This document shows, in pieces, positions 83-15,020 of a DNA stretch of 57,242 nt. Numbering within the stretch: the first letter of the stretch is position 1; every line of letters begins with the position of its first letter. The notes under the pieces were generated by a model. It made no database searches, had not been told where the DNA came from, and saw nothing but the letters and a program-made list of their open reading frames with translations. Origin of the DNA: Minisyncoccota bacterium (GTDB taxonomy: Bacteria; Patescibacteriota; Microgenomatia; PFEM01; JAFGMK01); NCBI GenBank assembly GCA_016927565.1, contig JAFGMK010000019.1, positions 1 through 57,242 on the forward strand, written 5' to 3'. The position numbers were made by a program, and so were the translations under genes.

Positions 83-111
83 TTGACTTCAGACAGCGTC
101 TTTGTTATATT
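83..111 (+). promoter_or_regulatory. sigma70-like promoter
   Basis: TTGACT (83-88), 17-nt spacer, TATATT (106-111), about 30 nt upstream of T-box Stem I. Confidence 0.5.
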
Positions 112-138
112 ATTTTCCAAATTTAGTTAAAAGCTTTG

Positions 139-530
139 AGGAGAACAAGTAGATTCCGGACCTCTGTCTTTAAAAGAGAGCGGTAGCTGGTGAAAATTCC
201 GCAAGCAAGTCCAGTTTCGAAAAGATCTCTTTATCCCTGAGATTCCGGGGGAAAGCTGCCGGAAGAACCCTCCTTCGCCATAGCTTCGGAAGGGCAAGTG
301 CTTTTCCAAAGCAGATTGCGAAAGAGCAAGTAAAACCGCGCCGGGTGCGCCCGTTAAAGCGCTAGAGTATCACTGCAAGTCAAGTACTCAAACAACGAAG
401 GCGAAGCCTTTTTTTGACGAGAACACCAGTGATGGTGTTTTTTTAGTGAAATCTCGGGGCCTAGCAAAATAAGGTGGTAACGCGGTTTGTAAATCGAGCC
501 GCCCTTATGAAAATAAGGGCGGCTTTTTTT
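139..530 (+). promoter_or_regulatory. T-box riboswitch leader, apparent Lys (AAG) specifier
   Basis: Stem I: GAGA..AGTA (148-151), AGAGAG bulge (175-180), distal-loop CTGGTGAAAA (187-196). Specifier loop: GAA-AAG-A (219-225). CCGTTA F-box-like element (351-356). T-box core AAGGTGGTAACGCGG (471-485) can pair with the 5' arm of the terminator. Confidence 0.8.
498..530 (+). terminator. intrinsic terminator of the T-box expression platform
   Basis: Perfect hairpin AGCCGCCCTTAT-GAAA-ATAAGGGCGGCT followed by T7. Its 5' arm competes with the antiterminator (AAGG / 7-nt UGGUAAC bulge / GCGG). Confidence 0.75.
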
Positions 531-578
531 ATGGTTTACCACCCAAATTTAAATATCAATTCAATAAGGAGGAAGCTT

Positions 579-1382
579 ATGATCCAAAGCAAAAATCAAA
601 ATTATCTTGCTAATTTGCCGGCTTATTTAAAAGAGGCGATTAGGTTTGATGAGGGCTATTTTTCGATTCCCTTAGCCGAAAGCCGGGAAGATTTCGCCTC
701 AATCAGAGAAAGTTTTTCTCAGAGAGATTTGCCGGTTTCGTTTGATCAGGCGCCCGGCCTCTTAAATCAACCCAAAATCTTTTGGGTAAGGCAAAGTTTG
801 ATTGATCCTCTTCTCAGGGCAGCAACTCAGCTAAAAAACAAAAGTTTAAGGTTGCATTTTTTCTCTGCTTACCGACCATTAGAGGAACAAAAAAAACTTT
901 TTGAAACCTCAGTCCGAAAAACAATTCAGGAATTTCCCCAGGTTGATAAAGAAACTTGTTTAAAAATTGCCGGGGTTTATGTTGCCTGTAATCCGGCCAC
1001 TGCCGCTCATGTTAGTGGTGCCGCGGTCGACGTCGGCTTAAGAACTTTATCAGGAAATTTTTTGGATCTGGGAGCAAATTACTTGGATTCTGGCCCTTGC
1101 GTAGCTACTGATTCTTCTCAAATCTCGTTCCGGGCAAGAGAAAATCGGAATTTACTCGCGGAAATAATGAATTCAGTCGGTTTTGTTAATTATCCTTTTG
1201 AATTTTGGCATTTTTGTTTTGGAGATCGGATTGCAACTTTTATCCAAAAAAAACCCCGGGCTTTTTTTGGGTCGGTTGTTTTTGATTCCCAAAAAGGAAT
1301 TATTAAGTTTTTAACCAATAAGGAACAAAAGAAATGTTTTGCCGTCAATCACTTATTTTTTAAAGAAAGGAAGAAAAAATGA
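579..1382 (+). CDS. M15-family D-Ala-D-Ala dipeptidase-like protein (VanX/DdpX-like)
   Basis: AGGAGG RBS then ATG at 579. Motifs YRP, AHVSGAAVDV (S-x-H-x-x-G-x-A-x-D) and EFWHF (E-x-x-H). The ORF-track start at 474 lies inside the T-box terminator. Confidence 0.8.
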   Translation: MIQSKNQNYLANLPAYLKEAIRFDEGYFSIPLAESREDFASIRESFSQRDLPVSFDQAPGLLNQPKIFWVRQSLIDPLLRAATQLKNKSLRLHFFSAYRPLEEQKKLFETSVRKTIQEFPQVDKETCLKIAGVYVACNPATAAHVSGAAVDVGLRTLSGNFLDLGANYLDSGPCVATDSSQISFRARENRNLLAEIMNSVGFVNYPFEFWHFCFGDRIATFIQKKPRAFFGSVVFDSQKGIIKFLTNKEQKKCFAVNHLFFKERKKK

Positions 1383-3283
1383 CAACCGAAAGACTACATC
1401 AAATGGAAACTGACTTTATCTTGATTCCGGATGGTTATCAAAAAGAGGTCGCTGGTCAATCTTATCTTTTCCAAAGATTGTCAGGCATTACCGCTTTGGG
1501 GGAAACTATTCCGCTTCAGCAAGAGGTTTTTGGCTTGACCGACCTTGAGGTTTGTCCGGCTCACATGCTGGTGACTATGGAAAAAGCTGGTGGGATTGCC
1601 GTTGGCGGCTGGGGGAGTAATGGCGAGTTGGTTAGTTTTGCTTATGGTTGGCCGATGAGTGAGCCGGGTTCGATCCTGCTGGATATGATCGGGGTAAGGG
1701 AGGATTTGCGGGATCATGGTCTGGGTTTTGAAAGTCTCAGGGTAATGGCCTTATTGGCTGAGGCAGCAGACTATAAAAGGATCAGGTTTACTTACGATCC
1801 GCTTGAGGCCAGAAATGCTAATTTTTATCTTCGAAAAGCCGGAGCAAGAGCCACCGGCTATGAAGTTAGTCCTTATGGTGATGGAGACTTGGCGGGTGAC
1901 CGATTCTGGGCGGTTTTAGATTTGACTTCTGAAAGAGTTGCTCATCGCCTTCTGGGTCAAAATGGCCAGCCTGGTTTTGATCAGGTAAACGACCTTCCAA
2001 TAGCCGGTCCAACCATATTTCCCCAGACAGACCGGCTGCTCTTGCCGATTCCGGCCTGTTTGGGAAAGTTAGCTGTCGAAGATCAAAGAGGCTGGTGGCA
2101 GTTTTATCGCCAGGTTGGCGAGCATTATTTCCCGAGGTATCAGGCAGTAGAAATGATTGTTCAGGATCAGGGAGAACAAGCAATTAATTATTATCTTTTT
2201 GAAATAGCTGCTTCTGTTAATCAAAGGGCGGCTGTTTTGTTTAAAGGAGGAATCATGTCAACTGAAACGGGGTTTTTTTTACAAACTGCAGATCTTTATG
2301 AAGGTTGCGGCAACCGACTTTTAATTGCCCCTCTAGCGGAAGAATTCTGGTCAACCGATTTTCTGGCGAATGCTCAACTACGTCAAGCTTTGGCTCAGGC
2401 GGGTCAGGAGCAACGGGTAGACAGCATTATGGTTTTGACCGGTCATCCCGAAGAACGGGAAAGTCAGGGCTATGATTGCACCATGGATGTTTTTGAGCCT
2501 GCTGGCAATGACGGCTCCGGGATGGCTGGTAGCTGGTCAACTATGTGCGGCAATGGTGTTAGGGCGGTTGCTCGGTACTTAATGGATACTGGCCAAATAA
2601 GCCAAGAGAAAAATCCTTACCGGATTGCTACCCGAAGTGGTATTAGGGCAATTGAGGTTTTGCCAGGCGATCTTTTCCGGGTCCGGATGGGTGAGTTTGC
2701 TTTTTCACCCCGGGATCTTAGCCGGTATTTAAATCCTGAGGCGATCGGACTGGATTTAACCGAATCAATAGTAGCCCTCCCGTTGCCAGCTTTTTTAAAC
2801 GAGGCCGGAATAAATCAGTTAGGAGTCAACGCTTGGTCAATGGGCTTACATGGTGACCGCGAAAATGGGAGTCAAATTGATGGTGAGCCTCATGTCGTTT
2901 TACTTCTGCCTCCTTCCTCAGCAATGACAATGCCTCAATTAGTTCAGACTGCTCAAGAGTGGGGTCCGAGAGTAACTAAAGCTACTGACTTTTTTCCTCA
3001 AGAGGTTAATTGTAACTTTGTGATTGTTCAGGAGGTTAATCAAGGAGAGAAAAAAATGCGCGTTATTGCCTGCACTCATGAGCGAGGCCTGGGTGATGAT
3101 CCGGCTCATTCTGTTACCCAAGCCTGCGGGACTGGTGCTACCGCTATCGGCTCAACTATGTTTTTAACTCGCAACCTTTCTGATGAATGGGAGGTTGAGG
3201 TTCAAATGCCTGGCGGAAGCTTGTTTATTCGCCGAGAAAATGAGCAGTATTTTATGGTTGGTCCGGCTAACAAATGCGATTAA
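1379..3283 (+). CDS. dapF: fusion protein: N-terminal GNAT-fold-like domain plus C-terminal diaminopimelate epimerase
   Basis: The C-terminal half has NDGSG..MCGNGVRAV and ACGTGATA, the two DapF catalytic Cys motifs. The N-terminal ~290 aa carry TYDPLEARNANFYLRKAGA, which resembles an uncharacterised GNAT-like family. ATGA overlap with the upstream gene. Confidence 0.75.
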   Translation: MTTERLHQMETDFILIPDGYQKEVAGQSYLFQRLSGITALGETIPLQQEVFGLTDLEVCPAHMLVTMEKAGGIAVGGWGSNGELVSFAYGWPMSEPGSILLDMIGVREDLRDHGLGFESLRVMALLAEAADYKRIRFTYDPLEARNANFYLRKAGARATGYEVSPYGDGDLAGDRFWAVLDLTSERVAHRLLGQNGQPGFDQVNDLPIAGPTIFPQTDRLLLPIPACLGKLAVEDQRGWWQFYRQVGEHYFPRYQAVEMIVQDQGEQAINYYLFEIAASVNQRAAVLFKGGIMSTETGFFLQTADLYEGCGNRLLIAPLAEEFWSTDFLANAQLRQALAQAGQEQRVDSIMVLTGHPEERESQGYDCTMDVFEPAGNDGSGMAGSWSTMCGNGVRAVARYLMDTGQISQEKNPYRIATRSGIRAIEVLPGDLFRVRMGEFAFSPRDLSRYLNPEAIGLDLTESIVALPLPAFLNEAGINQLGVNAWSMGLHGDRENGSQIDGEPHVVLLLPPSSAMTMPQLVQTAQEWGPRVTKATDFFPQEVNCNFVIVQEVNQGEKKMRVIACTHERGLGDDPAHSVTQACGTGATAIGSTMFLTRNLSDEWEVEVQMPGGSLFIRRENEQYFMVGPANKCD

Positions 3284-3334: not shown

Positions 3335-5644
3335 ATGAATATGAGTAAATTCTGGGCTGATAAATTAGTTAAGGGGATTATAGATTCCGGCAAGCATCTT
3401 CCTTATTGGGTAGATGATATGAAAACTCCTTCAGGCAGAATTCATGTCGGCGCTTTGCGGGGGGTAGTGATTCATGGTTTAATTCACCAGCTTCTTAAAG
3501 AAGCCGGCCTTAAGTCAACTTATACCTATGTTATTAACGACATGGATCCCATGGATGGTTTTCCCCGCTATTTGCCGGAAAAATTCCGCCGGTATATGGG
3601 CCGGCCTCTTTTTAAAATTCCCTCACCCGAAAAAGGCTATTCTTCCTTTGCCCGTTGTTACGCTGAGCAGTTTATTAAAACTTTTAACAGCTTAGGTTTC
3701 AGACCGAAGATTGTTTGGTCAAGCGAATATTATCTTCGGGGAAAATTTAACCGGGTGATTGAGGAAGCGCTGGACAGGGTGGTTTTGATCCGGAAACTTT
3801 ACAAAGAGATTTCCGGCTATGATAAGCCCGGAAACTGGTATCCTTTTCAGGTAATTTGCCCGAAATGCGGCCGGGTGGGCTCAACCATTGTTACCAACTG
3901 GGATGGCAAAAAAGTGACCTATGAATGCCGGAAGAATCTGGTAGATTGGTGTTCCGGCTGCGGTTATCAGGGAAAGATTTCTCCTTTTGATGGTGCGGGC
4001 AAATTGATGTGGAAAGTTGATTGGGCCGCTCATTGGAAAGTGATCGGAGTAACGATCGAAGGGGCAGGAAAGGATCATATGACTGAGGGCGGTTCGTACG
4101 ATCTTTCCAGTCAGATTTGCCGGCAGGTTTTTGAATATCCGCCACCGTTTGCCTATTTATATGAGTGGTTTTTAGCGAAAGGCGGCGTGAAAATGTCTTC
4201 CTCAAAAGGAATTGGGGTATCGGCGGTAGAAATAGCGGCGACATTGCCGCCGGAGATACTGCGTTTTTTATTGATTAAAACTCATTTTAAGCAAGCGATT
4301 ATTTTTGATCCGGCGAACAATGAAAGCATTTTGGATCTTTTTGATAAGTACGACGATTGCGCCCGGGAATACTGGGAAGAAAAAGATTCTTTGAAAAACC
4401 GGTCTTTCCAGTTATCTCAGGTTGGTAAAATGACAAAAAAAAGTTTTCTGCCTCGATTCCGGGAGGTAGTCAAAAGAATTCAGAATCCCAAAATGGACTT
4501 GGTGGAAAGCTTTGCCAGGGATAAGGGGAAATCCCTGAATGCCAATGAAAAGAAAATTTTAGAAGAGCGAATAAAATACGCCCGAATTTGGCTTAAAAGT
4601 TATGCCCCGGATGAATTAAAACTGGGAATAACCAAGAATCTTCCGGAGGGAGTTAGTGAACTTTCTGTTTCTCAAAAAGAGTATTTGGGTAAGGTTGTCC
4701 GGCTGTTGAAAAGAGAAGGATGGGATCCGGAAAAACTCCAAATGGCGTTATATGAAAAAACCAAAGAAACATCAATTCTCCCCAAAGAGGCTTTTCAGGC
4801 TCTTTATTTAACCTTATTAGGAAAAAACTATGGTCCTAAAGCTGCCTGGTTGTTGCTTGAGGAAGATCAAAATAAAATTATCACTCGATTAACTGCGGCT
4901 GTTAATTATCAAAAAGGATTGATTAAAAAAGAAAAATATCTTTATCCTTTATTGAAAGATTCTAAAATCTTTTCTATTGACCCTGAGTTTGCGGCTAAAT
5001 ACCCTTCCGTTGTGGTCGGAATCGCTCTTATCAAGGGAGTGAAGGTGAAAAAACAGGACCCTGTTTTGATCCGGGAAATTATTCAATTTACTCAAAGTCA
5101 GTCAGGTTTAACCAGTGAACAAATTAGCCGTTTCCCGGAAATTAGAAGTTATCGCCGGCTTTACAGAGAAACCGGCATTGACTGGCACAAAAGAAGGCCC
5201 TCGCCGGAATCTCTAAACAGAAGAATCGCTCGGAATCAGGGATTGCCTAATGTTAACAACTGCGTCGATGCTTATAACTTGGTCGTGGCCAAATACCGAG
5301 TTTCGGCTGGAGCTTTTGATTCAGACCAAATCAGATTTCCGACAGTTTTAAGATTTGCTCAAAAAGGGGAAAATATTCTGCTTCTGGGCGATAGGGAGCC
5401 CACAGAATATCTTCCGGGTGAGGTGGCTTACTTTGATCAAGCAGGAGGTTATAACATTGATTTCAACTACAAAGATGCCGCAAGAACTCTGGTGACCGAG
5501 AAAACAACCAATCTGTTAATCAATACTGAGGGTATTTTTGAGATTGGTCGGCACCAGGTGGAAAGGACCCTTCAAGAGACGATAGACAAGATTATTAAGT
5601 ACTGCGGCGGAAAATTAGAGAGTGCGGGAATCGCTGTCGCCTAA
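3335..5644 (+). CDS. lysS: class I lysyl-tRNA synthetase with C-terminal B3/B4-like domain
   Basis: PSGRIHVGALRG (HIGH-like) and KMSSSKG (KMSKS). It is about 240 aa longer than typical class I LysRS. The tail has PSPESLNRR..NNCVDAYN..GAFD..GE motifs typical of B3/B4 (PheT-like) domains. Confidence 0.9.
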   Translation: MNMSKFWADKLVKGIIDSGKHLPYWVDDMKTPSGRIHVGALRGVVIHGLIHQLLKEAGLKSTYTYVINDMDPMDGFPRYLPEKFRRYMGRPLFKIPSPEKGYSSFARCYAEQFIKTFNSLGFRPKIVWSSEYYLRGKFNRVIEEALDRVVLIRKLYKEISGYDKPGNWYPFQVICPKCGRVGSTIVTNWDGKKVTYECRKNLVDWCSGCGYQGKISPFDGAGKLMWKVDWAAHWKVIGVTIEGAGKDHMTEGGSYDLSSQICRQVFEYPPPFAYLYEWFLAKGGVKMSSSKGIGVSAVEIAATLPPEILRFLLIKTHFKQAIIFDPANNESILDLFDKYDDCAREYWEEKDSLKNRSFQLSQVGKMTKKSFLPRFREVVKRIQNPKMDLVESFARDKGKSLNANEKKILEERIKYARIWLKSYAPDELKLGITKNLPEGVSELSVSQKEYLGKVVRLLKREGWDPEKLQMALYEKTKETSILPKEAFQALYLTLLGKNYGPKAAWLLLEEDQNKIITRLTAAVNYQKGLIKKEKYLYPLLKDSKIFSIDPEFAAKYPSVVVGIALIKGVKVKKQDPVLIREIIQFTQSQSGLTSEQISRFPEIRSYRRLYRETGIDWHKRRPSPESLNRRIARNQGLPNVNNCVDAYNLVVAKYRVSAGAFDSDQIRFPTVLRFAQKGENILLLGDREPTEYLPGEVAYFDQAGGYNIDFNYKDAARTLVTEKTTNLLINTEGIFEIGRHQVERTLQETIDKIIKYCGGKLESAGIAVA

Positions 5645-5655
5645 AAGGAGGTTTT

Positions 5656-6429
5656 ATGAAGCTTCAGAAACTGGAGCAGTTTTTGAAAAATTACTGGGGA
5701 AAAGATTTTTTAACTAAATGGCAGAAAAAAGATGATCATGGCGCCAATGGTCTCCAGGTCGGCGGCCGGGAAAATATCAAAAAAATCGCCTTTGGAGTCA
5801 GCTGCAACGCCGATTTTTTACATCACGCTTTACATGACGAGGTTGATACTTGTATTTTTCATCACGGCTTAGATACTCGGTTTCCTCAAATGCTGATGCC
5901 GGAATATCTCCGAAAGCGTTTTAAACTGATTCTTGAAAACAATCTTAATATCTTTGGTTACCACGGAGCGATGGATGCCCATCCTAAACACGGCCACAAT
6001 ACCCTGATCTTAAAAGAGCTGGGAGTAAAAATTCTAGGCCCAGTTATGGACGAATGGGGTTATTATGGGGTTTTGCCAAGTCCCAGAAAACTCATTGCGA
6101 TCGGCAATCAATGCCGCCGGCTGTTTGATCACGAAGTCTTTGTTGAAGGCAATCCCGATCGGAAAATCAAAAGAGTTGCTGTTTGTTCCGGCGGCGGCAT
6201 TCCCGGCAGAGAAGAAGTGGTGAATTTTGTTACTAAAAAAATTGATCTTTACATTACCGGCGTTATTTCCGAGAGCCGGCCTCACATGTTTTCCGAAATG
6301 GGCATGGCCTATTTTGCCTGCGGCCATTATGCCACTGAAAAAATCGGGGTTTTAGAACTTGAAAAACAAATTAAAAAAACCTTTCCGGAAATAAAAACCG
6401 TTTTTATTGACATCAATAATCCTATTTAG
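5656..6429 (+). CDS. Nif3-family dinuclear metal-centre protein
   Basis: ANGLQVGG and HHG motifs, C-terminal GHYATE, length about 257 aa; AGGAGG RBS. Confidence 0.85.
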   Translation: MKLQKLEQFLKNYWGKDFLTKWQKKDDHGANGLQVGGRENIKKIAFGVSCNADFLHHALHDEVDTCIFHHGLDTRFPQMLMPEYLRKRFKLILENNLNIFGYHGAMDAHPKHGHNTLILKELGVKILGPVMDEWGYYGVLPSPRKLIAIGNQCRRLFDHEVFVEGNPDRKIKRVAVCSGGGIPGREEVVNFVTKKIDLYITGVISESRPHMFSEMGMAYFACGHYATEKIGVLELEKQIKKTFPEIKTVFIDINNPI

Positions 6430-6430
6430 G

Positions 6431-6466
6431 AATAAAGGCTAATCCTTTATTCTTTTGGTTTTTTAT
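6431..6466 (+). terminator. intrinsic terminator
   Basis: AATAAAGG-CTAAT-CCTTTATT hairpin followed by a T-rich tract. Confidence 0.5.
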
Positions 6467-6493
6467 TATTTATTCTTAATTTAAGGAGTGGTT

Positions 6494-7060
6494 ATGATCT
6501 CAAGAGAGGAAGCTTTAAAGTTCTTAAAAGAGCAGATTGAAAACAAAAACATCATCAAGCACATGATTGCCTGTGAAGTCATAATGCGGGCTTTGGCCAA
6601 GCGTTTTGAACCGGGAAAAGAAGAAGTTTGGGCGATGGCCGGTTTGTTGCATGACGGCGATTACCGGGATGATGTTCCTCCGGACCAGCAGGGAATCAAA
6701 GTTAGTCAGATGTTAGAAGCGAGGGGTTTTCAAATTCCTGAAGAAATGAAACAAACAATGGCTGCCCATAATTGGGGAAATACCGGCGTGGAGCCAAAAT
6801 CAAAGATGGATTGGTCGTTATTTTGTGGTGATTCCTTAACCGGCTTGATTGTCGCCACTGCTTTGGTTCATCCGGAGCGGAAATTGGCTCGAATTACGGT
6901 CGAGTCAATTTTAAAAAAGTTCAAAGACAAAGCCTTTGCCCGGGGTACCCGGCGGAAAGAAATTGCTCTTTGTGAGGAGAAACTTGGGATTCCTCTGAAT
7001 GAATTTATGGCGATTGGCCTTAAGGCAATGCAAGATGCCGCTGATGAATTGGGGCTTTAA
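6494..7060 (+). CDS. HD-domain phosphohydrolase
   Basis: LLHDGDY HD motif; AAGGAG RBS 5 nt before ATG 6494. Confidence 0.75.
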   Translation: MISREEALKFLKEQIENKNIIKHMIACEVIMRALAKRFEPGKEEVWAMAGLLHDGDYRDDVPPDQQGIKVSQMLEARGFQIPEEMKQTMAAHNWGNTGVEPKSKMDWSLFCGDSLTGLIVATALVHPERKLARITVESILKKFKDKAFARGTRRKEIALCEEKLGIPLNEFMAIGLKAMQDAADELGL

Positions 7061-7106
7061 AATTAGATTTGAAAGGTTCTCTTTATTAAAGAGAGGAAAG
7101 GTTTAA

Positions 7107-7625
7107 ATGGAGCGGAAATTTTGGCTCGGTGTCGGAGTTGGCGGATTTTTAGCTCTGGCGGCTTTTGCGGGATTGGAGTTTATAAGCTGTATTCCGGAAG
7201 GGACGTGTTTTACCCGGAGAAGCCCGTCTGTTAAGCCGGAAACCGCGATTGACTATGAAAGCTGTCTTTTGACAGGCGGAGAAGCGGCGAATGGATCGTC
7301 TGAAGAGGCCCCTCGCTGTTGTATCGGGGGTCAGTGTTTCTGGAAAGAAGCCGGAAAATCAGTCGAAGACCCGGTCGGTTGTGAGATAACCAACTGCCAC
7401 GGTTTGGAAATTACGTGCGGATCTGTTCCGCCGGACTTTTGCACCATGCTTTATCAGTCCGGCGATGTCTGTCGGCCTTTAGCTCGCTGTGAAGTGATTA
7501 ACGGCCGGTGCCAGCTGGTCGGGGATCCAAGATTAACTGCCTGTTGGGAATGTGTCCGTCAATGTCAGCAAATCACTGATCAAATTAAAAGTATAAATTG
7601 TGAGAGCAGTTGCCGTTTGGAATAA
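7107..7625 (+). CDS. Cys-rich secreted or membrane-anchored hypothetical protein
   Basis: N-terminal hydrophobic helix, then about 20 Cys in 140 aa; GAGAGGAAAGG RBS. Confidence 0.6.
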   Translation: MERKFWLGVGVGGFLALAAFAGLEFISCIPEGTCFTRRSPSVKPETAIDYESCLLTGGEAANGSSEEAPRCCIGGQCFWKEAGKSVEDPVGCEITNCHGLEITCGSVPPDFCTMLYQSGDVCRPLARCEVINGRCQLVGDPRLTACWECVRQCQQITDQIKSINCESSCRLE

Positions 7626-7715: not shown

Positions 7716-9002
7716 ATGCTTGATCCAAAATTTATTCGGGAAAATCCGGCAGAAGTTAAAAGAGCAACCCGGGCGAAAGGTTTAGCGCCGGCAATAGTTG
7801 ATCGATTCTTGAAAGTTGATAATACCCGGCGGCAGTTGATTGACAGGATTGAAAAAATCCGAGCTAAAAAAAATCAACTTAAACAAGACCAGGTTGAAGA
7901 AGGCAAAAAGCTGAAAAACCTTCTCCGCCGTCTTGAACCGGATTTGCGGGCGGTTGAAGAACAGTTTTATCAATTAGCCTACGAAATTCCCAATTTGATT
8001 GCTGAGGATGTCCCGTCGGGAAAGGACGAGACGGAAAACAAAGTAATTAAAAAATGGGGAAAACCGGAAAAGTTTTCTTTTAAAGCCCGTGACCACTTGG
8101 AATTGGGCGACTTTTTGGGGGTGATTGACACCCAGACAGCAGCAAAAGTTTCCGGGAGCCGTTTCGGGTATCTTAAAGGTGACGCCGTTCTTTTAGAGTT
8201 TGCTTTGGTTTCTTATGCCTTGTCAGTTTTGACCGACAAAAAAATGATCAGTTCTCTGGCCGCTAAAATTTCACCGGATTTTCCGGCCAAAGTTTTTGTT
8301 CCGGTTGTTCCGCCGGTAATGATTAGGCCGGAAGTTTATACTCAAATGGCCCGTTTGAGTCCCCGCGATGAGGATGAGCGTTATTACCTGCCGAAGGATG
8401 ATCTTTATTTAGTCGGCAGTGCCGAGCATACTTTGGGGCCGATGCATCTTAATCAGACCATCGCGGCCGAAGCTTTTCCCCTCCGGTATCTTGGTTTCTC
8501 GACCAGTTTCCGGCGGGAGGCCGGCTCATACGGTAAAGATACTCGCGGAATTTTACGGGTGCATCAATTTGACAAGCTGGAAATGGAATCTTTTTCTTTG
8601 CCGGAAAACTCAAGCTTGGAACAATGTTTTTTTGTCAGTATTCAGGAATACTTAATGCAGGCTTTAAAAATCCCCTATCGGGTAGTGGCTATTTGTACCG
8701 GCGATATGGGCGATCCTGATTACCGCCAGCTGGATATCGAAGCCTGGCTGCCGGGCCAGGGAAAATATCGGGAAACACACACCTCTGATCTTATGCTTGA
8801 TTATCAATCCCGCCGTTTGGGAACTAAATTTAAACGAAAAAACGGAGAGAATGGTTTTGTCCATATGAACGATGCCACTGCTTTTGCTGTCGGTCGGACA
8901 ATCATTGCCATTTTAGAAAATTTTCAGCAGAGGGATGGTTCGGTTCTCGTACCTGAGGTATTGCGAAATTATGTCGGAAAAGATAGAATAAAAAGAGGAT
9001 GA
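7716..9002 (+). CDS. serS: seryl-tRNA synthetase
   Basis: N-terminal coiled-coil arm, class II motifs (FRREAGS.GKDTRGI.RVHQF, GRT), 428 aa. Confidence 0.95.
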   Translation: MLDPKFIRENPAEVKRATRAKGLAPAIVDRFLKVDNTRRQLIDRIEKIRAKKNQLKQDQVEEGKKLKNLLRRLEPDLRAVEEQFYQLAYEIPNLIAEDVPSGKDETENKVIKKWGKPEKFSFKARDHLELGDFLGVIDTQTAAKVSGSRFGYLKGDAVLLEFALVSYALSVLTDKKMISSLAAKISPDFPAKVFVPVVPPVMIRPEVYTQMARLSPRDEDERYYLPKDDLYLVGSAEHTLGPMHLNQTIAAEAFPLRYLGFSTSFRREAGSYGKDTRGILRVHQFDKLEMESFSLPENSSLEQCFFVSIQEYLMQALKIPYRVVAICTGDMGDPDYRQLDIEAWLPGQGKYRETHTSDLMLDYQSRRLGTKFKRKNGENGFVHMNDATAFAVGRTIIAILENFQQRDGSVLVPEVLRNYVGKDRIKRG

Positions 9003-9655
9003 ATTTTTCCCTTATTTCAAAGATTGTTCATCACACTGCTTCTTCTATTAGCGGCGAAATAATTGTTAGAGAACAATTTGGCCAGCACTCTCTTCATGTA
9101 GTCGGCGTTCCTCAGTCTGGTGGGATTGTGAAGCAGATTTGGCAAAAAGGAATTAAATCTCTGCCGGATTTTAAACCCGTTCCGGAGGTTTTATTGTTGG
9201 GATTAGGCGGAGGAACGGTTATCCACTTGGTAAAAAAACGCTGGCCGGAAGCGAAGGTTTTTGCCATTGAGCTTGATCCGCAGATAATTGTTGTCAGCCG
9301 GACTTACTTTGATTTGGATAAAGTTTCAGGATTAAAAATTGTCAGAGATGATGCTTTTAAGGCGGTTTTGCAAAAAAAACACGGATTGGCAAAAAAACTA
9401 TTTGATTTGATCTTGGTGGACATTTATTTGGGCCAATCTTTGCCCGGCTTTGTGGAAACAGAAGAATTTATTCAGGCATTAGGCGGCCTTTTGACTAAAA
9501 GAGGGGTTTTGGTTTTTAATCATCTTTTGAACAAGGAGGGGAAAATGGCCATTATTCCTTTCCGTCAGCGGCTGAAAAAGATCTTTCCCGATCTTAAAAT
9601 GGTACAAACTTTCAGCAATGAACTTCTGATTGCCTCCAAAGGACAAACAGGATAG
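8999..9655 (+). CDS. class I SAM-dependent methyltransferase, spermidine-synthase-like
   Basis: LLLGLGGGT glycine-rich loop, IELDP, LILVD motifs. Confidence 0.7.
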   Translation: MNFSLISKIVHHTASSISGEIIVREQFGQHSLHVVGVPQSGGIVKQIWQKGIKSLPDFKPVPEVLLLGLGGGTVIHLVKKRWPEAKVFAIELDPQIIVVSRTYFDLDKVSGLKIVRDDAFKAVLQKKHGLAKKLFDLILVDIYLGQSLPGFVETEEFIQALGGLLTKRGVLVFNHLLNKEGKMAIIPFRQRLKKIFPDLKMVQTFSNELLIASKGQTG

Positions 9656-9671
9656 CCGGTTTAGGAAAACT

Positions 9672-12386
9672 ATGATCAAATTTTTTTCAAAGTTACTCGA
9701 TAGTCAGCGTAAGCAGCTTGATAAAATCAGACCATTAGTGGAGAAAATCAATTCGCTGGAAGAAGAGACGCAGTCTCTCGGGGAACAGGATTTTCCGGCT
9801 CGGACAGCAGCTTTCCGGCAACGTCTGGCTGATGGCGAGATTCTGGATAACCTTTTGCCTGAGGCTTTCGCTCTGGCTCGGGAAGCGATTAAAAGAGTGA
9901 TTGGCGAACGTGCTTATGATGTTCAGCTGATGGCTGCCGTCTGTCTTCATCAGGGCAAAATCGCCGAACAAAAAACCGGTGAAGGTAAAACCCTATCAGC
10001 CGCCATTGCTGCCTATCTTAATGCTCTTCCCGGAAAGGGAGTTCATATTGTTACTGTTAATGACTATTTAGCCCGGCGGGATGCCGGCTGGTACGGCAAA
10101 GCTTTGAGGTTCTTGGGACTTGAGGTGGGCTGTATTATGCATGAGGCGGCTTTTTCCCTGGATGAGGACTATGCAATTCAGGGTCAGGTTGATGAGCGTT
10201 TGCGCCATTTACGGCCGGTTCCCAAAAGGCAGGCTTATGAAGCAGATGTGGTTTATGGAACTAACAACGAGTTTGGTTTCGATTATCTTCGGGACAATAT
10301 GGCCTACCAGAAAGACCAGCTGGTTCAGAGAGGCCAGAATTTTGCCATTGTGGATGAGGTGGATTTTGTCTTGATTGATGAAGCCAGGACTCCTTTAATT
10401 ATTTCAGCTCCTGATGCCGAGCCGACTGAAAAATACTATCAGGCGACTCAGATGATTAAGATTTTGTCAGCCGATACCGACTATTTAATTGATGAGAAGA
10501 TAAAAACTGCCTCCCTGACCGAACATGGTCTGAGGAAGATTGAAAAAAGATTAGGGGTCGATAATCTTTATGAAAAAGATTTTGACACTATTCACCATTT
10601 GGAAAATGCCCTTCGGGCCCGGACTTTATATCTCAAGGATCGGGATTATGTGGTCAAAGATGGTCAGATTGTCATTGTTGATGAGTTTACCGGCCGGTTA
10701 ATGAATGGCCGCCGTTGGTCGGATGGTTTACACCAGGCAGTGGAAGCTAAGGAAGGAGTGAAAATTGAGCAAGAATCAAAAACAATGGCAACAATTTCTT
10801 TTCAGAATTACTTCCGGTTGTATGAAAAGCTGTCAGGAATGACCGGAACGGCGGCTACCGAGGCAGAAGAGTTTGAAAAAATTTATCAACTTTCAACGAT
10901 TGTTGTTCCTACCAATCTGCCTTTGGCCCGGCAGGACCAGGCTGATGTTATTTATAAAACTACCAGAGCCAAGTATGCGGCGGTGGTAGCCGAAATCGAA
11001 GAGAAATTTCAGCAAGGCCAGCCGATACTGGTGGGGACGACCTCAATCGAGAAAAACCAAATTCTGGATAGTTTTTTAGACAAGAAAGGAATTCCTCATC
11101 AGGTTTTAAATGCTAAGAATCATGAGCGGGAGGCCAAGATAATTGCTGATGCCGGCCGGAAAAAAGCGGTGACAGTAGCAACTAACTTAGCCGGTCGGGG
11201 AGTGGATATTGTTTTGGGGGGGGCCAAGCCCGAAAATCCGACTAAGACTGAAATCGCTTTGTGGCAAAAAGACCATGATGAAGTTGTTAGTTTGGGCGGG
11301 TTGCATGTAATCGGGACTGAGCGTCATGAGTCTCGCCGGATTGATAACCAGCTTCGGGGTCGGGCCGGGCGGCAGGGTGATCCCGGGTCTTCCCGTTTCT
11401 ATGTGGCGCTCGACGATGATATCATGCGTCTTTTTGGCGGTGAACGGATTGCCCGGCTGATGACTGTTTTTAAGCTTCCCGAAGACCAGCCTTTGGAGCA
11501 TAAAATGGTTAGCCGGGCGATTGAACAGGCTCAGGTGAGAGTGGAGAGTTTTCATTTTGACGCCCGGAAAAGAGTAGTGGAATACGATGACGTTATGAAT
11601 CGCCAGAGAGAGGTGATTTACGGCCGTCGCCATCAGCTTCTTGAAGGAGTGGTTTTAAAAGATGGCTTGTTTGAGGCAATGGAGAAAGAAGTTGAAAATT
11701 TAGTGGAGATGTATGCTCCGGAGGGGTTTGCCAAAGCTGAAATTGACCAAATAGTTAATAGCTTTTGTGAGATTTTGCCTTTGGAGAGCGAGTCTCAAAA
11801 AAAGCTCAAAAAAGCTTTGGCTCAAAAAAGTCCGGCTGAAATCAAAAACCTGCTGGAGCAAACTCTGACTTCGGCCTACCGGGCGCGGGAAAAGCAATTG
11901 GGCGAAGAAAATCTTCGTCAGGTTGAAAGAATGCTTTCTTTGATGGTAATTGACCGGCTCTGGGTTGACCATCTTGACAGTATGGACGATTTAAGAGAAG
12001 GGATTGGTCTGAGGGGCTATGGCCAGCTTGATCCTTTGGTCGAATATAAAAAAGAAGCCTTCGGTGCTTTTGAGGCCTTGTTGAAAACGATTGATACTAA
12101 TGTGATTAAAAGAATTTTCCGGGTTCAGGTGGGAACGCCGCCCCAGTTCCGTTCCCGCCAAAACATGGTTGAGAGTCGAGGTCAAATGCCGGAAATACAA
12201 ACTCAAACCAGTTCTTCAGCTCAGACGTCAAATGCCGGCTTGTCTTTTAGCCAGTCCTCGGTAACCGGTTCCGCGGTTGAGCCGGTAGTTTCCGGCCGGA
12301 AAAAAATCGGCCGCAACGAACCCTGCTGGTGCGGCAGCGGGAAAAAGTACAAGAAGTGCCACTATCCCCAACCCTCACCTAATTAG
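9672..12386 (+). CDS. secA: preprotein translocase ATPase SecA
   Basis: MIKFFSKLL.. start typical of SecA, Walker A TGEGKT, DEVD box, C-terminal zinc motif CWCGSGKKYKKCH. Confidence 0.95.
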   Translation: MIKFFSKLLDSQRKQLDKIRPLVEKINSLEEETQSLGEQDFPARTAAFRQRLADGEILDNLLPEAFALAREAIKRVIGERAYDVQLMAAVCLHQGKIAEQKTGEGKTLSAAIAAYLNALPGKGVHIVTVNDYLARRDAGWYGKALRFLGLEVGCIMHEAAFSLDEDYAIQGQVDERLRHLRPVPKRQAYEADVVYGTNNEFGFDYLRDNMAYQKDQLVQRGQNFAIVDEVDFVLIDEARTPLIISAPDAEPTEKYYQATQMIKILSADTDYLIDEKIKTASLTEHGLRKIEKRLGVDNLYEKDFDTIHHLENALRARTLYLKDRDYVVKDGQIVIVDEFTGRLMNGRRWSDGLHQAVEAKEGVKIEQESKTMATISFQNYFRLYEKLSGMTGTAATEAEEFEKIYQLSTIVVPTNLPLARQDQADVIYKTTRAKYAAVVAEIEEKFQQGQPILVGTTSIEKNQILDSFLDKKGIPHQVLNAKNHEREAKIIADAGRKKAVTVATNLAGRGVDIVLGGAKPENPTKTEIALWQKDHDEVVSLGGLHVIGTERHESRRIDNQLRGRAGRQGDPGSSRFYVALDDDIMRLFGGERIARLMTVFKLPEDQPLEHKMVSRAIEQAQVRVESFHFDARKRVVEYDDVMNRQREVIYGRRHQLLEGVVLKDGLFEAMEKEVENLVEMYAPEGFAKAEIDQIVNSFCEILPLESESQKKLKKALAQKSPAEIKNLLEQTLTSAYRAREKQLGEENLRQVERMLSLMVIDRLWVDHLDSMDDLREGIGLRGYGQLDPLVEYKKEAFGAFEALLKTIDTNVIKRIFRVQVGTPPQFRSRQNMVESRGQMPEIQTQTSSSAQTSNAGLSFSQSSVTGSAVEPVVSGRKKIGRNEPCWCGSGKKYKKCHYPQPSPN

Positions 12387-13277: not shown

Positions 13278-15020
13278 ATGATTAAACTTTTCCGGCGCTA
13301 CTACCAGTTCATCACGAAATATAAAAGAAAATTTATTATTTTCAATCTGGTCGTAGTGGTAACGGCGGTTTTGGAAACTCTCAATCCTTATTTTTATAAG
13401 CTTTTAATTGACAATCTTTCGAGTCGGGATTACTGGTTGTTGGTTAAAATAATTATTCTGTTTGTCGGAGTGAAAATTTTGGCGAATTTGTCTCATGCCA
13501 TGAATTATTGGCTGGGAGATAAGATTTTAATTCCCGCCGCCCGGGATGTCCGCTTGGCCGTTTTCCGCCGCATTCAGGAGCTTGACTTTGCTTATCATGT
13601 CAACAAAAATACCGGTTCTCTGATCAGTGCCTTTAAAAGAGGTGACGGGGCCTTTTTTGATATTTTTCACAGTATCAATCATGAGCTGGCGCGGTTGCTG
13701 ATTAGTTTGTTAGTAGCCCTTTATTTTTTCGTCCGCGTTACTCCCTCCATTGCCTTCATCTTGTTGGGATTTTTTATCGCCAATATTTTTATCAGCTGGA
13801 GATTGATTAAACACAACATGCGGATCCGGCGGGAATTTAACCGGTCTGAGGATGCGGTTTCGGGGATCATTACCGATAATCTCTTGAATTATGAAACCGT
13901 TAAATTTTTTGCTCAGGAGAAAAAAGAAGAGGCTCGTTTGCAGAAGCAGTTTGAAGACTGGTTTGAAAAGCTTTGGGCTTTTGCCAATTCATTCCGGTTA
14001 ATGGATGTGATGGTAGGAAGTTTGGCCAACATCGGTATGCTGGTGATTCTCTGGGTGACTTTGAAGAAAATGGTTAGCCAGGAAATCAGTTCCGGCGATT
14101 TTATTTTGGTAGCGAGCTTCATGACTGGTTTTTACTATCGTTTTTTTGATCTTTTATATCGGATGAGGCATGTTGCCAGACATTATGTCGATATCAAAAA
14201 ATATCTGGAAATTTTAGAACAGCCGATTCTGGTTAAAGACCCCGAAAAGCCGGTAGATCTTTTAAAGGTTAAAGGAGAAATTGAGTTTCAGGATGTCGAT
14301 TTTGCTTATCCGGACTCTAAGAGAAAAATGATTTTAAAGGATATTAACTTAAAAATTAAACCGGGCGAATCAGTGGCCTTTGTCGGCCGGTCCGGGGCCG
14401 GCAAAACAACCCTAGTTAAAATCCTTTTGCGTTTTTATGATCTGAATCAAGGCCGGATTCTTCTAGACGGAGTGGATATTGCCGATTTTGCTAAAAGCCG
14501 ATTACGCTTGTTTATCGGAGTAGTGCCGCAAGAGCCGGTTCTTTTTAACAATACCGTTGGTTTTAACATCAGTTATGGCAATGATCAGGTTTCTCAGGCA
14601 GAAATCGTTAAGGCTGCCAAAACCGCCAATCTTGATCGTTTTATAGATGGCCTGCCAAAAAAATACGAAACCGAAGTAGGCGAGCGGGGAATTAAACTTT
14701 CAGGCGGTCAAAAACAACGCTTGGCGATTGCCCGGATGATTTTGGCGGATCCTCAGATTATTGTTTTTGATGAGGCGACGAGCAATTTGGACTCGGAATC
14801 TGAGCGTTTAATTCAGGAGGCTCTTTGGAAGATTGCTCGGGGACGGACAGTTCTGATAATTGCCCATCGCTTTTCAACTGTCAGAAAAGCCGATCGGATT
14901 ATCGTCATGAATCATGGCCGGATTGCCGAGGAAGGTTCTCACCAGAATCTGATCAAACGCCAGAAGGGCCTCTATCAATATCTCTGGCAGCTTCAAACTA
15001 AGGGTGAGTTAGACGAATGA
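13278..15020 (+). CDS. ABC exporter, fused permease/ATPase (MsbA-like)
   Basis: Six-TM N-terminal half. Walker A GRSGAGKTT, signature LSGGQKQR, Walker B IIVFDEATS. Confidence 0.9.
   Translation: MIKLFRRYYQFITKYKRKFIIFNLVVVVTAVLETLNPYFYKLLIDNLSSRDYWLLVKIIILFVGVKILANLSHAMNYWLGDKILIPAARDVRLAVFRRIQELDFAYHVNKNTGSLISAFKRGDGAFFDIFHSINHELARLLISLLVALYFFVRVTPSIAFILLGFFIANIFISWRLIKHNMRIRREFNRSEDAVSGIITDNLLNYETVKFFAQEKKEEARLQKQFEDWFEKLWAFANSFRLMDVMVGSLANIGMLVILWVTLKKMVSQEISSGDFILVASFMTGFYYRFFDLLYRMRHVARHYVDIKKYLEILEQPILVKDPEKPVDLLKVKGEIEFQDVDFAYPDSKRKMILKDINLKIKPGESVAFVGRSGAGKTTLVKILLRFYDLNQGRILLDGVDIADFAKSRLRLFIGVVPQEPVLFNNTVGFNISYGNDQVSQAEIVKAAKTANLDRFIDGLPKKYETEVGERGIKLSGGQKQRLAIARMILADPQIIVFDEATSNLDSESERLIQEALWKIARGRTVLIIAHRFSTVRKADRIIVMNHGRIAEEGSHQNLIKRQKGLYQYLWQLQTKGELDE

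Follow-up and report, generated by a model that had tools for sequence, protein, structure and literature searches.

Examination of a 57,242-nt contig of a Minisyncoccota bacterium (JAFGMK010000019.1, the whole of which is hereafter called the window) identified a leader RNA that could place an operon encoding a lysyl-tRNA synthetase (LysRS) under the control of tRNA-Lys. In our reading (probability about 0.86), the region from approximately position 118 to 530 is a T-box riboswitch of class I, the type that attenuates transcription, and its specificity is for tRNA-Lys. Judged from sequence, control by the leader (127-530) of the LysRS operon in an ultrasmall bacterium of the candidate phyla radiation (CPR, or Patescibacteria) is well supported. 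The RNA family is a known one, while the phylum appears to have had no T-box described in it and the structural oddities of the leader are specific to the lineage. Membership of the Rfam T-box family (RF00230) was supported by 9 of the 12 features tested or considered.

An Rfam covariance search in E-value mode matched RF00230 to positions 127-509 over the full model (model positions 1-219) with 46.6 bits (E = 4.7e-9 on 700 nt, 3.9e-7 on the whole window). It was the only one of 4227 families to match the window at E<0.01. The scan proposed in a first-pass annotation of the sequence was, therefore, significant across the window, though under the curated gathering score of 93 bits. A score of 46.6 bits falls below this threshold and standard annotation therefore overlooks the leader; indeed, a default scan of the window with the gathering cut-off returned nothing and the permissive mode was needed. 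The leader is long (approximately 410 nt) and carries lineage-specific insertions in the Rfam alignment, among them large ones in Stem II (102 nt) and before the T-box sequence (approximately 100 nt). Together with the significant match, five related CPR leaders with compensatory changes in three structural modules bear out the T-box identity that the first-pass annotation had proposed.

The specifier loop of the leader contains an S-turn, a three-nucleotide codon and an unpaired purine adjoining the closing helix (P1). The cmscan alignment placed its GAA-AAGA on the GAAauuca of the model. For its "+0" frame, TBDB takes as the specifier nucleotides 2-4 of the bulge, counted from the 3' side (PMC7778990), and in this leader these read AAG. 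The database also considers the -1 and +1 frames (PMC7778990); the former reads AAA here, also a lysine codon, and the latter AGA. The early reading of GAA-AAG-A at 219-225 as a loop with a lysine specifier agrees with the +0 frame, with the covariation of all four P1 pairs and with the identity of AAG-A, directly before P1, in all six CPR leaders (the window, L009, L030, L032, L036 and L005). The AGUA strand of the S-turn is invariant among the aligned leaders. A GA/AGTA motif had been assigned to the base of Stem I at these positions; AGUA is present there, but it forms the specifier-loop S-turn and not the kink-turn (K-turn) of the stem base.

The distal part of Stem I carries the AG bulge and the distal loop as sequence motifs on a predicted helix, and the AGAGAG and CUGGUGAAAA elements are where they had first been noted (175-180 and 187-196). 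In solved T-boxes, the two form a platform that stacks on the tRNA elbow, and by analogy the same function may be ascribed to them in the window leader. The leader also has a Stem II with its S-turn and a Stem IIA/B pseudoknot with an F-box. The upper helix of Stem II is unusually long (approximately 268-326) and appears in the minimum free energy (MFE) fold; it is the region in which Rfam counts 102 nt as an insertion.

At its 3' end, the leader carries the conserved T-box core (AAGGUGGUAACGCGG) at the coordinates previously assigned to it (471-485), with a 7-nt bulge, UGGUAAC (475-481), of the UGGN type. The UGGU of the bulge (475-478) is invariant in 6/6 CPR Lys leaders and would pair with the ACCA-3' end of an uncharged tRNA. 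A UGGU bulge therefore predicts A as the discriminator base; the discriminator of bacterial tRNA-Lys is A73. The antiterminator (-15.5 kcal/mol, z = -3.0) and the intrinsic terminator (-23.9 kcal/mol, z = -7.1) both use nucleotides 496-508 and are therefore mutually exclusive, as had been claimed for the antiterminator and a perfect terminator followed by seven T residues. The ribosome-binding site (RBS) is unpaired and sits 36 nt past the terminator. With both the RBS and the start codon (ATG 579) beyond the terminator, control is therefore transcriptional.

By analogy with the established T-box mechanism, transcription would start at the predicted sigma-70-like promoter (83-111), and the nascent Stem I would offer its AAG (222-224) to the anticodon of tRNA-Lys while the platform of AG bulge and distal loop (175-196) would meet the tRNA elbow. 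In an uncharged tRNA-Lys, the free ACCA-3' end would pair with UGGU and stabilise the antiterminator (469-508), allowing RNA polymerase to read through into the genes for an M15 dipeptidase, a GNAT-DapF protein, a class I LysRS with a B3/4 domain and a NIF3 protein. With lysine-charged tRNA, the stronger terminator (496-530) would form and transcription would stop. The promoter is a match to consensus, from which the transcription start is predicted; promoters of the TTGACA/TTGCAT type occupy the equivalent site upstream of Stem I in 5/5 related leaders.

The five further Lys-type leaders are in CPR contigs and scored 39-91 bits against RF00230 (Table 1). In a 7-leader structural alignment, P1 was 100% paired and compensatory at all four of its pairs (GAGA/UCUC, GGAG/CUCC, GAGG/CCUC, AGAA/UUCU and GGAG/CUCU). 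Over the whole of Stem I, 86.3% of the cells were paired, compared to 33-44% with slid partners, and 21 of 25 pairs had double-sided changes, counts that are biased towards the structure, since three of the seven sequences had also gone into the model that guided the alignment. MAFFT had misaligned two of the leaders (L005 and L028, the latter from Fusibacter) in this stem, and the model-guided alignment was used. The IIA/B pseudoknot was 100% paired and three of its four pairs were compensatory (GCCU/AGGC in L009, UCGC/GCGA in L032 and L036 and, by eye, GUGU/ACAC in L005). The two antiterminator helices were 98.2% paired across the seven leaders, with 4/8 pairs compensatory, in a count that replaced variable loops with a 4-nt placeholder. 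Read directly from the sequences, the base of Stem II covaries as well (CGG/CCG in the window and L030, AGG/CCU in L009 and L032, CGA/UCG in L036 and CAG/CUG in L005). The divergent L005 leader was found by Rfam and missed both by our Stem I model (R1, default filters) and by the first regular expression for the T-box core, a pattern that was loosened afterwards. Scanning metagenomes for a degenerate Stem I pattern returned two matches only, one of them a duplicate of L009.

Table 1. Elements of the leader and operon in the window, and related Lys-type leaders in other CPR contigs (coordinates of each contig or locus).
Feature	Position	Strand	Details
Sigma-70-like promoter	83-111	+	-35 TTGACT 83-88, 17-nt spacer, TG-extended -10 TATATT 106-111
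Stem I (tRNA anticodon- and elbow-binding arm)	133-234	+	Rfam alignment; helices 133-134/233-234, P1 141-144/226-229, 152-161/209-218, 169-171/203-205, distal 180-185/197-202
K-turn 5' half UGA	137-139	+	3' strand 230-232 is UUU, not GA
Specifier-loop S-turn 5' half AGUA	148-151	+	partner GAA 219-221
AG bulge AGAGAG	175-180	+	Rfam consensus AGAGA
Distal loop GCUGGUGAAAA	186-196	+	Rfam consensus UGGUGaaA; includes CUGGUGAAAA 187-196
Specifier AAG (Lys)	222-224	+	then purine A225, then P1 226-229
Stem II	260-338	+	base CGG 260-262/CCG 336-338; S-turn AAGAA 263-267/AGUAAAA 329-335
Stem IIA hairpin and F-box	342-362	+	hairpin 342-344/351-353; F-box CCGUUA 351-356
Pseudoknot IIB	347-350/359-362	+	GCGC with GCGC
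First linker hairpin	398-410	+	followed by U7 (U-run 409-415)
Second linker hairpin	422-439	+	followed by U7 (U-run 438-444)
AAUCUCGGGG	450-459	+	10-bp long-range complement of CCCUGAGAUU 235-244 (Stem I-II linker)
T-box sequence AAAAUAAGGUGGUAACGCGG	466-485	+	Rfam alignment; conserved core AAGGUGGUAACGCGG 471-485
Antiterminator	469-508	+	A1 469-474/503-508, A2 482-489/495-502, bulge 475-481
Intrinsic terminator	496-530	+	perfect 13-bp hairpin 496-508/513-525, GAAA loop, U-run 524-530
RBS AAGGAGG	566-572	+	
Gene 1	579-1382	+	VanX/DdpX-like M15 D-Ala-D-Ala-type dipeptidase; Peptidase_M15 3.5e-15
Gene 2	1379-3283	+	GNAT acetyltransferase domain (aa 1-290) fused to DapF-like epimerase
Gene 3 (lysK)	3335-5644	+	class I LysRS with C-terminal B3/4 domain; tRNA-synt_1f 2.5e-88, B3_4 6.4e-20
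Gene 4	5656-6429	+	NIF3/DUF34 protein
Terminator-like hairpin	6428-6454	+	after gene 4
L009 leader (Beckwithbacteria)	5082-5515		58.9 bits; operon: unk362 (GNAT fold), M20 ArgE/DapE-type deacylase, class I LysRS, NIF3
L030 leader (metagenome)	1517-1235	-	91.4 bits; compact, canonical K-turn and Stem III
L032 leader	782-1112		71.6 bits; operon: unk364, M20, class II LysRS with HDIG domain, NIF3
L036 leader	3744-3985		44.4 bits; truncated Stem I, no distal platform; operon: unk362 (GNAT fold), M20 ArgE/DapE-type deacylase, class I LysRS, NIF3
L005 leader (CPR3)	4538-4940		39.0 bits; gene order: GNAT, lysine 2,3-aminomutase, M20, then 1.8 kb non-coding, class I LysRS-B3/4

The genes downstream agree with the specifier. 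In the window, AAG (Lys) precedes an operon with a class I LysRS, and a LysRS is downstream of 5/6 leaders, the contig of the sixth (L030) ending inside the operon. The synthetase is of class I in the window, L009, L036 and L005, in the last case 1.8 kb past the final gene of the operon, and of class II in L032 (NF001756, 635 bits vs 468). The lysine 2,3-aminomutase of the L005 operon scored 575 bits against TIGR03820 (cut-off 525), and the first gene of the L030 operon is a distant unk362 homologue (E 2e-5). Comparison of these loci indicates that the association of an AAG specifier with LysRS or lysine enzymes recurs independently. The T-box was found in only 2 of 21 CPR species representatives that carry this LysRS, with none near lysK in the other 19, and it was not found in the same gene cluster of L033, L034, L035, L037, L038 and L039.

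Many CPR genomes, with or without a T-box, have a conserved gene pair directly upstream of LysRS of either class (L009 5542-7778, L032 1120-3371, L033, L034, L036, L037 and L039). The first member is an unnamed protein of approximately 360 aa with a GNAT fold (116 clusters; AlphaFold2 (AF2) model with a predicted local distance difference test score (pLDDT) of 91.7), the second an M20 deacylase of the ArgE/DapE type. Immediately upstream of the Lys T-box operon, several CPR lineages also conserve greA and a tRNA-Glu(CUC) gene (L009 4305-4377, L030 2257-2330, L032 54-128 and L036 2619-2692). This neighbouring gene led us to consider GAA (219-221) as a glutamate specifier, a candidate that we rejected: GAA is the universal S-turn motif, L030 has AAA in its place and the anticodon of the neighbouring tRNA is CUC.

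The four genes of the window either overlap or sit 51 nt and 11 nt apart, which is why we infer a single operon, probably ending at the hairpin that follows gene 4. The LysRS gene is the third of the operon and not the first. The start codon of gene 1 is the same in an independent assembly. The DapF part of gene 2 keeps both catalytic Cys motifs (MCGNG and ACGTG) and scored 97.9 bits against TIGR00652, under the cut-off of 114.65, while the AF2 model of its N-terminal domain (pLDDT 93.6) matches GNAT folds. The fusion was seen only in this contig, a word-index search returning the protein itself and one DapF-like fragment. The GNAT domain falls within a large, unnamed family whose members are stand-alone proteins of approximately 280 aa (1479 representatives at E<=0.001); its membership in the unk362 family was ruled out by BLAST and hhalign (probability 0.2%). 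For both GNAT-type proteins, searches of NCBIfam, PDB sequences and Foldseek returned only generic GNAT folds and no specific function. The product of gene 3 scored 366 bits against TIGR00467 (cut-off 147.55), and no second LysRS was found among the subset of window open reading frames (ORFs) that was scanned. Class I LysRS proteins with a B3/4 domain, which has the fold of the editing domain of the phenylalanyl-tRNA synthetase beta-subunit, are encoded in several CPR lineages (the window, L002, L005 and L039).

The host is consistent with the CPR-like genome suspected at first. All close relatives of the LysRS are from Patescibacteria metagenome-assembled genomes (MAGs), among them Beckwithbacteria, Gottesmanbacteria, Dojkabacteria and CPR3, and the downstream synteny (NIF3, HD, seryl-tRNA synthetase (SerRS), SecA) matches the loci of CPR relatives. 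An identical sequence is present in a second assembly (Logan, SRR13394437). Between the HD-domain and SerRS genes, the window also encodes a predicted Cys-rich protein of 172 aa (7107-7625) that has a hydrophobic segment at its N-terminus and matched nothing in Pfam.

Several observations weigh against a functional Lys-specific T-box: the structural departures considered first below, the choice of codon and the tRNA gene searches, the low Rfam score and the bias of the Stem I pair counts noted above. The structural departures could signify a decaying or non-functional T-box relic, with the terminator serving as a constitutive attenuator or belonging to an upstream gene, a reading that we consider unlikely. 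The claim that all canonical parts could be read directly held for the sequence motifs, found at the coordinates given for them, and failed for the K-turn, which is degenerate, and for Stem III, which has no canonical counterpart. The 3' strand of the K-turn has been lost to UUU (230-232), and the base of Stem I is therefore a regular helix, folding as 8 continuous bp (137-144 with 226-233). The K-turn is also degenerate in L005, whereas L030, L009 and L036 retain GGA, AGA or UGA on the 3' strand. Adjacent to the T-box sequence there is no canonical Stem III of the kind present in L030 and L032; the nearest hairpin (422-439), with U7 after it, is approximately 30 nt upstream. At the site expected for Stem III, the full-leader MFE fold (z = -3.9) pairs 450-459 with 235-244, a complementarity that was not seen in L009 or L030 and may be peculiar to the window leader or accidental. 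The two hairpins of the linker, each with its U7 (398-415 and 422-444), could terminate transcription regardless of the tRNA; possibly they are pause sites or leaky early terminators. The two large insertions would also suit a relic, as would the complete absence of the T-box from the same cluster in L033, L034, L037 and L039, from which the element would be dispensable and in the process of being lost in places. Against such decay, the window leader retains an intact specifier, AG bulge, distal loop, F-box/pseudoknot and UGGU bulge as well as both alternative helices, compensatory changes have preserved these features across six diverged leaders, and L005 has kept everything else despite having no K-turn either.

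Terminator-like hairpins were seen in other loci as well. L009 has a similar one with U6-U7 inside the leader, upstream of the T-box sequence (approximately 5311-5333), and L005 a further one after its T-box terminator (approximately 4945-4995). In L037, the T-box site between greA and the unk360 gene is occupied by a 217-nt leader (3785-4000), possibly a remnant or a leader of another kind, in which a terminator-like hairpin directly precedes the start codon and the T-box core is lacking.

AAG is the minor lysine codon in the window ORFs (26%, AAA accounting for 74%) and the minority lysine specifier in TBDB, and thus the sensed isoacceptor may be tRNA-Lys(CUU), or tRNA-Lys(UUU) through wobble. 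ARAGORN found no tRNA gene of any kind in the window and no tRNA-Lys in the window or in 33 fetched loci, where only tRNA-Glu(CUC), Leu and Phe tRNAs were detected. That the T-box functions but responds to a different tRNA, or to several, is improbable. TBDB allows a +1 frame, which in this leader would specify arginine (AGA), and uncharged tRNA-Asn partially induced the lysK T-box of B. cereus (Foy et al., PMC2916919), a precedent for cross-induction. Yet the +1 frame places the paired U226 after the codon rather than an unpaired purine, the -1 and +0 frames both specify lysine, and the operons hold LysRS and lysine enzymes, none of them encoding an arginyl- or asparaginyl-tRNA synthetase.

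A third alternative, in which there is no T-box at all and the leader either resembles one by chance beside an ordinary terminator or senses lysine in another way, as the L-box does, would accommodate a score at half the gathering threshold and a Stem I whose MFE alone was not better than that of shuffled sequence (z = +0.26), but is effectively refuted by the Rfam scores (E 3.9e-7 against 4227 families, no other family matching at E<0.01, the lysine riboswitch included, and relatives reaching 91.4 bits) and by covariation in three separate structural modules.

A T-box of class I that responds to tRNA-Lys would have few counterparts. Among 891 genomes, LysRS was found under T-box control in four species and in every case a second LysRS had no such regulation (Foy et al., 2010; PMC2916919). 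Lysine is also among the least common specificities in TBDB, and the rarity that the first-pass annotation had noted agrees with both sources. The lysK T-box of B. cereus and B. thuringiensis (PMC2916919) belongs to the same rarest specificity class, is likewise transcriptional and controls a class I LysRS. In the window, by contrast, lysK is the third of four operon genes (with peptidase, GNAT and DapF), the host is a small-genome CPR bacterium, the specifier is AAG and the leader is approximately 410 nt long and has no K-turn.

A second counterpart is the lysK T-box of a Fusibacter MAG (L028 9546-9841). As in the window, it precedes a class I LysRS, has a UGGUAAC bulge and carries the lysine codon at the same position of the loop, in support of the specifier reading, and its IIA/F-box (GCCGGGUGCNCCCGUUA) is near-identical to that of the window leader. 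It differs in its score (92.8 bits), in reading AAA-G instead of AAG-A, in having a canonical K-turn and in sitting directly before lysK, and the LysRS is 25% identical to that of the window. To our knowledge, this T-box is unpublished. The same MAG has another T-box (5437-5614), and both have Lys-type loops (..AUAAAGC in 5437-5614 and GAAAAAAG in 9546-9841). The former precedes a class II synthetase of the D/K/N type (5680-7179), probably LysS. If so, both LysRS genes of one organism would be T-box controlled, contrary to the published generalisation.

The order of elements in the window leader is that of canonical class I T-boxes (RF00230; B. subtilis tyrS and glyQS): a Stem I with S-turn, specifier, purine, AG bulge and distal loop, a Stem II S-turn, the IIA/B pseudoknot, and a T-box sequence with a UGGN bulge and competing antiterminator and terminator. 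It departs from them in the degenerate K-turn, a Stem II longer by approximately 55 nt, the lack of an adjacent Stem III, a linker of approximately 100 nt with two hairpin-plus-U7 elements and a CPR rather than a Firmicutes host. The short-Stem-I class II T-boxes (actinobacterial, ileS-type) are resembled by L036 in its truncated Stem I without the distal platform; L036 nonetheless keeps C-AAG-A, Stem II and the pseudoknot, and ends in a terminator. Unlike the translational class II elements, the window leader has a long Stem I with the platform motifs, a U7-tailed terminator and no Shine-Dalgarno sequestrator. The usual cis-acting RNA before bacterial genes of lysine biosynthesis (dap, lysC and lysA) and transport is the lysine riboswitch (L-box, RF00168). 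Its physiological role is the same as that of the window leader, but it senses free lysine and not tRNA charging and its fold is unrelated; RF00168 had no match in the window at E<0.01.

The L005 contig (CPR3 bacterium GWF2_35_18, MESW01000003.1) has a second T-box (13549-13750, 50.8 bits) with a short Stem I and a UGGC bulge, located before genes for a SerB-like HAD hydrolase and SerRS. It is probably Ser-specific, in which case the T-boxes of CPR3 are not confined to lysine. The discriminators expected are A for tRNA-Lys and G for tRNA-Ser, and the variable base of the bulge differs between the two L005 leaders (UGGU and UGGC) as these predict. Between the M20 and LysRS genes of the same contig is a stretch of approximately 1.8 kb without a sizeable ORF (8240-10000), whose core (8400-9600) has a G+C content of 43-56% in a genome of approximately 35% and folds extensively (-398 kcal/mol for 1221 nt). 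It had no Rfam match at E<0.01; a large structured RNA that has escaped annotation and an intron-like element are both candidates for it.

Full-text searches, incomplete in their coverage and compatible with an earlier mention, returned no paper linking T-boxes with CPR/Patescibacteria, and T-boxes go unmentioned in a recent review of these bacteria (PMC11665869). The window leader is one of a small CPR/Patescibacteria lineage of Lys T-boxes that precede LysRS operons of either synthetase class. The scores of all six CPR leaders (39-91 bits) are below 93 and, therefore, Rfam-based annotation reports none of them; the distribution of T-boxes across phyla is, as a result, probably underestimated. 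We tentatively extend the reading to several Patescibacteria, although we doubt it more than we favour it: the Lys T-box would be the switch of a sole LysRS, of either class, and of a co-regulated lysine-scavenging module (a GNAT-fold protein together with an ArgE/DapE-type deacylase, with a lysine 2,3-aminomutase, or with an M15 peptidase and DapF), and the leaders of CPR bacteria would constitute a structural subclass of their own, able to dispense with the K-turn, with Stem III shifted or another element in its place, and with internal hairpins as pause sites or terminators. If true, this would contradict the rule that a T-box-controlled LysRS always coexists with an unregulated copy, would suggest a lysine-related role for two uncharacterised CPR protein families and would mean that current covariance-model thresholds systematically miss the CPR subclass.

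Knowledge of gene regulation in CPR/Patescibacteria is extremely scant. In these genomes, a recognisable tRNA-sensing riboswitch provides a directly testable regulatory element and, possibly, a tool for inducible expression in these bacteria. The rare lysine specificity here precedes LysRS of both classes, beside enzymes of lysine and diaminopimelate metabolism, an association that offers a clue to the function of the unnamed GNAT-fold family (116 clusters), its M20 partner and the GNAT-DapF fusion. The mechanism is a textbook one; what merits follow-up is its occurrence in this host group, with a rare specificity, ahead of LysRS genes of both classes and in association with uncharacterised enzymes.

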